A stretch of 14,611 nt of DNA, taken from the NCBI RefSeq assembly GCF_003334255.1, contig NZ_QOWU01000079.1. One strand, given 5' to 3'. Within the stretch, counting starts at the first letter, position 1, and each line of letters starts with the position of its first letter. A program made the translations under genes and the position numbers. The notes beneath the pieces were generated by a model that was not told the DNA's origin, made no database searches, and saw only the letters and a program-made list of their open reading frames with translations. Shown here piece after piece: positions 1 through 1,579 of the stretch. Source of the stretch: Escherichia coli (GTDB lineage Bacteria; Pseudomonadota; Gammaproteobacteria; Enterobacterales; Enterobacteriaceae).

Positions 1-261
1 TTCATCCAGCAGTGCCAGCACGGTAGCCGGGTTAGCCTCTGCTATGAATTCAGCGTTTGCATAAGCCTGAGCATCTGATTCAATCAGGCAGTTAACATGA
101 CATTCCGCAATCACGCCACCGGGTTCTCCTTTCCATTTTTGACAAACAAAAACTCCTGTTAAATTGCCGTGTTGGTTAACAGATGTATGCCCTACGATGT
201 AGCTTCCTTTAGTTGCTTTCTCTGCCTTTTCACGCAGTACCTGATAGTTAATGTTGCTCAC
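1..261 (-). CDS. Ea22-like early-region protein, N-terminal 87 codons only (gene continues past the left edge of the window)
   Basis: GTG start at 261-259 preceded by AGGAGG (6 nt spacer); GTGA start/stop overlap with the upstream ORF; translation MSNINYQVLREKAEKATKGSYIVGH...AEFIAEANPATVLALLDE resembles the conserved N-terminus of ead/Ea22-like prophage proteins (recalled from memory, not searched). Not in the ORF track because it has no stop in the window. Confidence 0.5.
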   Translation of the reverse strand, partial: MSNINYQVLREKAEKATKGSYIVGHTSVNQHGNLTGVFVCQKWKGEPGGVIAECHVNCLIESDAQAYANAEFIAEANPATVLALLDE

Positions 262-497
262 TGGTTGCCTCCTTTACGGATCTGCGCTGCGATGCACGAA
301 AAAAAAGACTTTCGCGTATGACTGTTAAGAGCTGGCGCGAACGCCGCGTTAAGAACGGCGGCATCACAGCCGTCATCGATATAGAGCGCAATTTTTTTCT
401 CCAGGCGTGCTTTGGCTTCCTGCAACTGCATATCCCGGCACGCACGCGGGATATACTCAGCAATTTGAGCGATAGATTTTTCGTTCTGTTTAAACAT
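258..497 (-). CDS. hypothetical small early protein (79 aa)
   Basis: ATG at 497 preceded by GAGGTG; stop overlaps the next gene start (GTGA); 8-nt overlap with the upstream ORF; part of a co-directional coupled chain. No family recognised. Confidence 0.5.
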   Translation of the reverse strand: MFKQNEKSIAQIAEYIPRACRDMQLQEAKARLEKKIALYIDDGCDAAVLNAAFAPALNSHTRKSFFSCIAAQIRKGGNQ

Positions 498-693
498 GCT
501 TCACCTCGATAGGCTTGATGGTATCGATCAGCAGTCGGCGGCGAGTATTTTCTGCAAAGTGGCGGCGTCCGGTTTCTTTGTGGTAAAACTCGTTTTTTCC
601 GACGACCCACATCCGCTTTGTCTGGTGCAGTTTTTTTACCTGCGGACCGTCTCGGGTGATAACAATTCCTGTATGAGTTTTTATCACGCTCAT
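490..693 (-). CDS. hypothetical small basic protein (67 aa)
   Basis: ATG at 693 overlaps the stop of the DUF551 gene (ATGA); co-directional chain; basic composition (K/R-rich). No family recognised. Confidence 0.5.
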   Translation of the reverse strand: MSVIKTHTGIVITRDGPQVKKLHQTKRMWVVGKNEFYHKETGRRHFAENTRRRLLIDTIKPIEVKHV

Positions 694-1052
694 TTTTTAT
701 TCTTCGGTGCTTTCGGCATTACTGCCCAGTGAGTGATATTGACGTTTTCAAGGTCCCCGACCTGAAATGTCCACAGCCATTCTCCGGTTTCTTTTTGTCC
801 CCAGGTGTACCAGAGAGAACGCCAGCCAATTAGCCAGCCTTCTCCGTTAGCATCAAATAACAGAACACTTTCATTTGCTGGCGGCAGTTCAGCTGACACT
901 GGTATTATTTTGTTTTCCAGTGCCGCACATTTAGCTTCAAGCGCATCGAATTTACGTACCAGGTACTCAGCATTTGTTTCATTCACTTTCAGATCTCGTG
1001 GTACACATTTCCCGCGAAGAAACCCTTCCATTTCGAAAACATTCATGCGCAT
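690..1052 (-). CDS. DUF551-family prophage protein (120 aa)
   Basis: Track ORF; C-terminal Trp-rich region (GEGWLIGWRSLWYTWGQ...ITHWAVMP) typical of DUF551; GGAG 8 nt upstream of ATG at 1052; overlaps the upstream HD gene stop by 10 nt. Confidence 0.6.
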   Translation of the reverse strand: MRMNVFEMEGFLRGKCVPRDLKVNETNAEYLVRKFDALEAKCAALENKIIPVSAELPPANESVLLFDANGEGWLIGWRSLWYTWGQKETGEWLWTFQVGDLENVNITHWAVMPKAPKNKK

Positions 1053-1579
1053 GTGCGTAACTCCGATAACTCGTTAAAGCGCTCCATAAACATCCCGTAG
1101 GCATGGCTCGGAGCCAGTGGAATAACTTTGAACATTTCTGTTGCCGGGATACCTTCCAGTACTGGCCAGAAAGAGCCATCATCAAGCCCGAGATCGCGGC
1201 GTTCGGTTGCCAGCATGATGAGATCGGCATATTTCACAGGCGTGCTCATAACCGGGGGTAACCCGTATTTCTCACGGATTACGGCGTCTATTTTTTCTTC
1301 CATCCGTTTATAGTCAGGAAGAAGGCGTTTCAGTGGAGCGGGAATATCCTGGCAATACGCTTCTGTTGCATCATGCATTAACGCTTCAAAAGCAAATTCC
1401 TGCGGCACCAGCTGGCTGCAAAGCACCGCATGTTGGGCGACACTGTAGAAGTGAGAAAGATGACCGGCAAAGCGGCAGATATTTGAAAGGGAAACCGCGA
1501 TATCGTTAATCACGATGTCGTCTTTATTTATCTTGTCATAATAAAAATGCTTCCCGGAAAAAGTTTTAATAAATGACAT
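1043..1579 (-). CDS. HD-domain phosphohydrolase (YfbR-like 5'-deoxynucleotidase family), 178 aa
   Basis: Start moved to internal ATG at 1579 (MSFIKTF...), which has GGAGAA 6 nt upstream; the track's 23-codon extension lacks an RBS. Contains an H...HD metal-binding signature (RFAGH ... ALMHDATEAY). Confidence 0.7.
   Translation of the reverse strand: MSFIKTFSGKHFYYDKINKDDIVINDIAVSLSNICRFAGHLSHFYSVAQHAVLCSQLVPQEFAFEALMHDATEAYCQDIPAPLKRLLPDYKRMEEKIDAVIREKYGLPPVMSTPVKYADLIMLATERRDLGLDDGSFWPVLEGIPATEMFKVIPLAPSHAYGMFMERFNELSELRTCA

Follow-up and report, generated by a model that had tools for sequence, protein, structure and literature searches.

Do short overlaps between neighbouring genes indicate that the encoded proteins are made in fixed proportions? 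This question is raised by a stretch of 14,611 nucleotides (nt) of Escherichia coli DNA (NCBI RefSeq assembly GCF_003334255.1, contig NZ_QOWU01000079.1), analysed at its full length and referred to as the window, in which five consecutive genes on the minus strand overlap one another by 10, 4, 8 and 4 nt. The chain begins with an HD-domain (YfdR) gene (1043..1579, 178 amino acids (aa)) and a DUF551 (YfdS-like) gene (690..1052, 120 aa), continues with two small unnamed open reading frames (ORFs), here called orf67 (490..693, 67 aa) and orf79 (258..497, 79 aa), and ends with an Ea22-like gene, of which the N-terminal 87 codons (1..261) lie in the window. An earlier note on this DNA had described the five leftward genes with their GTGA, ATGA, 8-nt and 10-nt overlaps, and this description was confirmed base for base by a base-level reading of positions 1-2400. 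We consider it very likely that all five are real genes, and that their overlaps reflect the compact and modular build of phage early operons and not required fixed protein ratios.

At the first junction, the HD stop codon TGA (1045-1043) and the DUF551 start ATG at 1052 are contained in ATGCGCATGA, a 10-nt overlap. The DUF551 stop and the orf67 start share ATGA (693-690), the orf67 stop and the orf79 start together form the 8-nt sequence ATGTTTAA (497-490), and the orf79 stop shares GTGA (261-258) with the GTG start of the Ea22-like gene. The latter gene contributes only its start codon to the range 258-1579, and its remainder leaves the window at the left edge. The 4-, 8- and 4-nt overlaps belong to the class of junctions at -8 to +6 nt, while the 10-nt overlap falls just outside (an alternative ATG at 1046 would reduce it to 4 nt). 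Four of the five starts are equipped with a Shine-Dalgarno (SD) sequence of their own: GGAG 6 nt before ATG 1579 for the HD gene, GGAG 8 nt upstream for DUF551, GAGG 6 nt upstream for orf79, and AAGGAGG 6 nt upstream for the Ea22-like gene. The last three motifs, spaced by 6-8 nt, lie inside the 3' end of the preceding gene. Calculated SD hybridisation energies display a wide range, from -11.6 kcal/mol (Ea22) over -7.2 (orf79), -6.4 (HD) and -6.1 (DUF551) to -1.0 (orf67). Identical gene calls and overlaps are found in the RefSeq annotation of E. coli genomes; the region 1-2800 is covered to at least 80% in 15 E. coli genomes, and partial matches occur in thousands. In a 99.9%-identical genome (L001) the chain sits between a repressor gene of the LexA family (cI-like) and the genes for excisionase and integrase, which marks the region as the early-left arm. 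The E. coli prophage is best read as a lambdoid one of the mEp460 / CPS-53 type, and positions 1-1579 as the distal part of its early-left operon.

The packing of these genes exceeds what chance would produce. Chains were defined as ORFs of 60 aa or longer joined through overlaps of 1-10 nt, and the longest chain was compared with 1000 dinucleotide-preserving shuffles: the left region holds 4 complete linked ORFs (shuffle maximum 2), and a region on the right of the window holds 8 (shuffle maximum 4). A 99.9%-identical E. coli genome, as annotated in RefSeq, provides 25 co-directional prophage junctions from integrase to Q, 15 of which fall within -8 to +6 nt (binomial p 1.3e-4 against a chromosomal baseline of 24%). 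This baseline corresponds to 707 of 2987 gene pairs of the E. coli chromosome (PMC10666635). The overlapping architecture extends throughout the prophage. Shuffles and enrichment together indicate that the tight packing is real, but that it is a property of the whole prophage and not of these five genes in particular.

Comparison of related loci displays a pattern of exchanged neighbours and retained overlaps. In a set of 90 unique loci, i.e. non-redundant related loci from IMG/VR, the start of orf67 is embedded in ATGA without exception, in spite of three different upstream 3' ends: a DUF551 gene (70 loci), a gene resembling 3'-phosphoadenosine 5'-phosphosulfate (PAPS) reductase (19 loci), and a short ORF remnant of 28 codons (1 locus). 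The HD gene is followed by either DUF551 or the PAPS-reductase-like gene, both beginning at the same ATG with the 10-nt overlap (the latter is annotated in phage ArgO145). More distant relatives have a DUF977 gene, a 93-aa gene, a ParB-like gene or a 389-aa gene in front of the orf67 homologue, joined to it at ATGA or GTGA, and in K-12 yfdS is followed by the unrelated yfdT via TAATG. Downstream of orf79, many Ea22-like alleles (60-306 aa) or at least four unrelated genes start from the same GTG. The overlaps thus recur in related prophages, the observation that the earlier note had proposed as a check. A constant neighbour, as would be expected for subunits of a complex, is absent at HD/DUF551, DUF551/orf67 and orf79/Ea22, and only the pair orf67/orf79 is largely conserved. 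Exchange of partners with retention of the overlap at three of four junctions shows that the overlap belongs to the junction and not to a particular pair of proteins. The same exchange leaves the earlier claim, that overlaps imply co-translation and fixed stoichiometry, without support, and the four SD sequences, which allow de novo initiation, weaken it further.

The junction between orf79 and the Ea22-like gene illustrates this modularity. A cassette of about 33 nt, GCAGCGCAGATCCGTAAAGGAGGCAACCAGTGA (258..290, minus strand), comprises the C-terminus of orf79 (AAQIRKGGNQ and stop), the SD sequence and the GTG of the next gene; in general form it encodes A-x-Q-[IL]-R-K-G-G-N-Q-stop, combined with the consensus AAGGAGG and GTG. 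Near-identical copies (at most 2 mismatches in a 19-nt core) close other, unrelated genes of Ea22 regions, and at least five unrelated GTG-start genes come after it. The cassette occurs once in the window, where 0.01 occurrences are expected. Nucleotide diversity, calculated for 54 distinct aligned chains, steps from 0.035 just upstream of the cassette to 0.376 just downstream. Conserved cassette, unrelated flanks and the step in diversity together identify the junction as a portable stop/SD/start cassette located exactly on a mosaic boundary. A cassette in this position matches the classical picture of lambdoid modular evolution, linkers having been treated classically by Susskind and Botstein, Juhala et al. 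(2000) and Clark et al. (2001). Like the linker sequences described for lambdoid phages in the context of modular evolution and relaxed homologous recombination (PMC3945230), the cassette is short and conserved, marks the border between two genes and has unrelated flanks. Phage Rad52-like recombinases are able to recombine short and diverged homologies (PMC3945230). Recombination may start inside the cassette, or selection may simply retain recombinants joined where genes end. As junctions of this kind are interchangeable cassettes at mosaic boundaries, a start/stop overlap in a phage operon is no evidence of a protein complex.

The two small ORFs are genuine genes, as the earlier note had supposed. 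Its argument from the overlap, taken alone, is weak; the conclusion stands on independent comparative evidence, namely full-length matches to PHROG families, in-frame purifying selection, homologues throughout the Enterobacteriaceae and outside them, and confident structure models. The product of orf67 matches phrog_1226 over residues 1-67 of 67 (E 2e-42). The gene is intact (ATG plus 67 codons) in 90/90 unique loci, with a ratio of nonsynonymous to synonymous polymorphism (pN/pS) of 0.19 in the annotated frame. It is present in 102 isolated phage genomes, and 111 homologues were found, down to 52% identity; those of equal length come from Klebsiella, Salmonella, Citrobacter and Raoultella, and further ones from phages of Cronobacter, Yersinia and Erwinia. 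The AlphaFold2 (AF2) model is predicted as an all-beta, compact fold of five strands (predicted local distance difference test (pLDDT) 88.6). The orf67 sequence also forms the N- or C-terminal domain of phage proteins of larger size (121-216 aa; PHROGs 7520, 5148, 4183), for example in Yersinia phage vB_YpM_44 (L176, 1495-1860), and hence behaves not only as a stand-alone gene but also as a mobile domain. The orf67 start region is A-rich, with predicted accessibility at the 98th percentile, and the SD sequence of the window allele (GAAG) is very weak. Among the 70 loci with DUF551 upstream this motif is polymorphic, being GAAG in 31 related loci as in the window and GGAG in 39. The difference corresponds to a K/E change in the DUF551 C-terminus (…APKNKK versus …APENKK) at 690-715, so that a single nucleotide alters both the DUF551 tail and the strength of the orf67 ribosome-binding site.

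The product of orf79 matches phrog_1344 over residues 1-79 of 79 (E 1.2e-52). Klebsiella, Salmonella and Raoultella have homologues of equal length, the AF2 model is a predicted four-helix bundle (pLDDT 88.0), and overall pN/pS (0.26-0.31) is comparable with that of DUF551. Yet orf79 appears to be a frequently damaged gene. It contains two homopolymer tracts that are recurrent sites of frameshift, A7 (392..398, minus strand) and, 92 nt downstream, T8 (299..306, minus strand). The A7 tract is A6 in L001 and in L167/L168, and T7 and T9 variants of the second tract are found among the IMG/VR loci. In the closest genome, L001, orf79 with A6 is annotated as a frameshifted pseudogene. The lineage of L167/L168 combines A6 with T6, a net change of -3 that restores the frame after 30 out-of-frame codons; an NCBI assembly and a Logan assembly both show this allele, and several database "homologues" of orf79 at 52-63% identity are such tract variants. 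Between the tracts (codons 36-66), pN/pS amounts to 0.13 in the canonical frame as compared to 1.2 and 8.6 off frame, which argues that the canonical frame is the selected one. Non-canonical alleles of orf79 (frameshift, start loss, truncation) are present in 15/90 loci, compared to 0/90 for orf67 (Fisher p = 3e-5). At the start codon itself (495-497), ATG is replaced by ATA in 3/90 unique loci, which in the overlapping frame of orf67 exchanges V conservatively for I. As the orf79 frame has a TGA two codons further upstream, no alternative upstream start is available, and orf79 is probably silent in these loci.

Prokaryotic genomes are dominated by overlaps of the -4, -8 and -1 classes, and such overlaps are known to bring about translational coupling. 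A possible mechanism for the chain would be as follows. The five genes would be read from one polycistronic mRNA, and a ribosome ending the upstream gene would stop within 1-7 nt of the next start, where it may reinitiate, or may keep the embedded SD sequence unfolded so that another ribosome can bind. Each downstream gene would then depend, at least in part, on the preceding gene for its expression. Coupling would be expected to count most at orf67, where the window allele has hardly any SD sequence, and at DUF551 and orf79, for which structured start regions are predicted. Experiments in E. coli found strict coupling at -4 and -1 overlaps, and its collapse at a distance of about 20 nt (PMC6728339, PMC10666635); 13 of 14 tested pairs of the -4, -1 and -8 classes were strictly coupled (PMC6728339). 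By analogy, translational coupling along the chain seems plausible. With four of five starts carrying SD sequences of widely differing strength, equal output is not to be expected.

It has to be asked whether the overlaps exist in order to produce the five proteins in fixed ratios, e.g. as parts of one complex, with coupling as the enforcing mechanism. Short overlaps are indeed enriched among genes for heteromeric complexes in E. coli (30.4% vs 6.8%, a 4.5-fold enrichment of short-distance pairs for complex subunits; PMC10666635), and orf67 and orf79 stay adjacent across different phage backbones. Nevertheless we regard this explanation as very improbable. About 70% of the short-distance gene pairs of E. 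coli encode no complex subunits (PMC10666635), and unrelated partners are exchanged on the downstream side of HD, on the upstream side of orf67 and on the downstream side of orf79 with the overlap retained, the Ea22-like partners alone ranging from 60 to 306 aa. Moreover, SD energies between -1 and -11.6 kcal/mol permit unequal de novo initiation, and orf79 is inactivated or altered in 15/90 loci while its neighbours persist.

The opposite view, that selection for small genomes and turnover of start and stop codons have produced the overlaps as a neutral by-product with no effect on translation, appears very doubtful to us as well. It is in line with variation of the overlap at one and the same junction (-1 in K-12 yfdS/yfdT, -8 or -17 in orf67/orf79, +10 or +83 upstream of some orf67 homologues), and simulations are reported to yield short overlaps readily from codon turnover (PMC3887535). 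On the other hand, nearly all junctions fall in the -4, -1 and -8 classes, in which 13 of 14 tested pairs were strictly coupled (PMC6728339), ATGA is kept in front of orf67 in all 90 loci despite the three upstream 3' ends, and a junction cassette with consensus SD is conserved between unrelated flanks. That one or both small ORFs are untranslated annotation artefacts filling space is extremely unlikely. No match to either was found in Pfam, NCBIfam, PADLOC or PDB, nor any significant structural neighbour, and orf79 is damaged in 17% of the unique loci and annotated as pseudogene in the closest genome. Against this stands the in-frame pN/pS of 0.19 and 0.26-0.31, compared to at least 0.95 in the other sense frames and the ORF-bearing antisense frames (1.3-2.0 in the two other sense frames of orf67 and orf79, about 1 in the antisense frames holding the program-listed ORFs 318-512 and 496-732). 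Protein length and sequence are conserved down to 50-60% identity in other genera, accompanied by synonymous divergence, the orf67 domain is fused inside larger phage proteins, and both folds are predicted with confidence (pLDDT 88).

Several observations qualify our preferred interpretation of five real genes in a compact, modular operon. The orf67 homologues without upstream overlap, at +10 and +83 nt, belong to Cronobacter phage JK004 and a P1-like phage, and L164 carries a further homologue without overlap. One additional antisense frame of each small ORF displays low pN/pS (0.29 and 0.32), which is attributed to wobble positions shared with the sense frame; the program-listed ORFs lie elsewhere. 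A consensus scan revealed no standout promoter or terminator between 258 and 1579, with totals within those of shuffled sequences, although the scan is a crude one. Accessibility of the start regions is predicted to be high for orf67 and low for DUF551 and orf79, and by these predictions the junctions may depend on coupling for different reasons. Synonymous diversity is reduced at the 3' end of the HD gene (0/8 vs 89/170 variable third positions, p = 0.007), which could reflect the embedded ribosome-binding site or merely a nearby mosaic boundary. Finally, the 4.5-fold enrichment mentioned above suggests that some pair may be physical partners, most plausibly orf67 and orf79.

These two genes form the most persistent pair of the chain. 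Among isolated phage genomes, 102 carry an orf67 homologue and 92 an orf79 homologue, and the counts per organism fit co-occurrence in about 92 of the 102 orf67 phages, the exceptions being distant Yersinia, Erwinia and Cronobacter phages with orf67 only. The 8-nt overlap is kept in lambdoid and Shiga toxin (Stx) phages, in the P1-like Punavirus vB_EcoM-813R1 (L179) and in Klebsiella phages, where the pair lies downstream of replication genes; adjacency with the same overlap is also found in other enterobacterial contigs. A Salmonella element with PolA and SNF2 genes has a 17-nt overlap, and in one lineage a 203-aa gene is placed between the two. Of 5426 complete E. coli genomes, 505 carry the pair, and 162 of the matches lie on plasmids. 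These include E. coli plasmids about 92-100 kb in size (e.g. NZ_CP195557.1, NZ_CP148411.1), where the pair is found at 91-93% identity. Its occurrence on plasmids and in a P1-like phage suggests exchange between lambdoid prophages and phage-plasmids. In the chain, only orf67 and orf79 travel together across phage types, and their distribution is compatible with a functional partnership or with simple linkage of short adjacent genes. We tentatively hypothesize, as a rather unlikely possibility, that they represent an obligate two-protein module moving as a unit, its internal 8-nt overlap included, among temperate phages (lambdoid, Stx, P1-like and Klebsiella) and phage-plasmids. If true, the pair would be a candidate heterodimer with an unrecognised role in host takeover or counter-defence. 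A bolder version of this hypothesis would view the slippery homopolymer tracts of orf79 as a frameshift switch tuning the module.

The arrangement has known relatives. Phage mEp460 (NC_019716), an isolated and viable lambdoid phage, carries the same five genes in the same order and with the same 10/4/8/4-nt overlaps (gp33-gp29), at 96.8% identity over the shared DNA; it differs by a DUF2303/YfdQ gene upstream instead of RdgC and by a different Ea22-like allele. The cluster yfdQ-yfdR-yfdS-yfdT of the cryptic prophage CPS-53 (KpLE1) in K-12, likewise in the early-left arm of a lambdoid prophage, displays the same 10-nt ATGCGCATGA overlap and 98%-identical YfdR and YfdS. There, yfdQ (DUF2303) takes the position of the RdgC-like gene of the window, and yfdS is followed by yfdT, unrelated to orf67, and then by a truncation, whereas the window continues with orf67, orf79 and the Ea22-like gene. 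A functional parallel is provided by the coupled overlapping gene pairs of E. coli (Huber et al., 2019, 2023; PMC6728339, PMC10666635), which share with the window the -4, -8 and -1 overlaps and the SD sequence inside the upstream gene. Coupling was measured in those pairs, while the window is known from its sequence, its partners are interchangeable, and its 10-nt overlap lies outside the analysed class. With interchangeable partners, the rationale of a stoichiometric complex does not follow. The chain is an example of ordinary, already known compact phage operon architecture. For annotation, the two unnamed ORFs are confirmed as real and widespread phage genes; beyond that, nothing is added to the established knowledge on phage compaction and coupling, and the persistent orf67-orf79 pair is the sole lead.

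The first two genes of the chain are known by name from K-12. The HD protein is an orthologue of YfdR of MG1655, with 98% identity, and matches phrog_318 (E 1.7e-109). Its match to the Pfam family YfbR-like is weak (E 5.3e-5), and its score of 19.9 bits against the NCBIfam 5'-deoxynucleotidase equivalog lies below the cut-off of 122; in RefSeq the gene is named 5'-deoxynucleotidase. YfdR binds DnaA, its nucleotide affinities lie far below YfbR's, and its function remains elusive (PMC4776307). The same study reports that the proteins YfdQ, YfdR, YfdS and YfdT are visible on gels when expressed from the native arrangement, that a frameshift in yfdS has a phenotype, and lists YfdS as DUF551 (PMC4776307). 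The DUF551 protein of the window is an orthologue of YfdS, again with 98% identity, and matches phrog_583 (E 1.9e-81). Pfam PF04448 aligns to its residues 50-117, i.e. nearly the whole 68-position model, yet weakly (E 1.2e-3, 20 bits). In terms of pN/pS, the HD gene is at 0.075 and DUF551 at 0.24. A second in-frame ATG of DUF551 at 1046 would turn the 10-nt overlap into ATGA. The first ATG (1052) is retained in 69/70 loci. We favour it for three reasons: its SD spacing fits, one natural variant has lost ATG 1046 but retains 1052, and the PAPS-reductase-like gene, an unrelated replacement of DUF551, begins at the position corresponding to 1052.

A gap of 90 nt separates the HD gene from the upstream RdgC-like gene (1670-2587, minus strand), which matches phrog_724 "exonuclease recombination-associated". 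Its annotated start is ATG 2587, and the program-listed ORF reaches TTG 2737. The gene occupies the position that yfdQ/DUF2303 holds in K-12 CPS-53, mEp460 and Stx phages, and by its position appears to be another mosaic replacement; of the complete E. coli genomes, just 15 have the entire 1-2800 arrangement. The interval of about 700 bp (2590-3290) that separates the RdgC-like gene from the gene of the cI-like repressor is free of annotated genes in a near-identical RefSeq genome. It contains only short minus-strand ORFs (56, 36 and 65 aa), and a hairpin with T-run is found at 3254-3271, directly after the repressor gene. This interval is the expected site of the early-left promoter and of regulators of the N, cIII or kil type. 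At the other end of the chain, the Ea22-like gene has its full length of 182 aa in L001, where it matches Pfam Ead_Ea22 (E 5.6e-36).

A second chain lies on the right of the window. The earlier note had placed it at 6035-9002; it exists, but starts further upstream, with eight successive overlaps beginning at YmfL/Rha. ORF coordinates, the RefSeq annotation of the near-identical genome and the shuffle test define nine genes (4890..9394, plus strand): YmfL, Rha, orf74, orf99, orf327, a PerC-like protein, an N6-adenine methyltransferase, a 108-aa LexA-family protein and RusA. Seven junctions are overlaps of 4 nt (YmfL/Rha at 4890-4893, and 6035, 6256, 6552, 7532, 8676 and 8999), and the junction at 8026 is a 1-nt overlap of the form TAATG. 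The gene of the PerC-family transcriptional regulator (7532-8026, plus strand, 164 aa, GTG start) shares 4 nt with the 327-aa gene before it and 1 nt with the methyltransferase gene after it. The "LexA family protein" of RefSeq (8676-9002, plus strand), between the methyltransferase and RusA, falls far short of the length of a complete LexA or cI repressor. At its right end (about 12280-14611), the window departs from the genome L173, which is 99.9% identical elsewhere. From about position 4000 onward, the coordinates of window and L173 are offset by about 71 nt, which points to indels or a module swap. At 12807-13766, the window holds a 319-aa ORF on the minus strand, and L173 has a plus-strand SASA-family carbohydrate esterase there.

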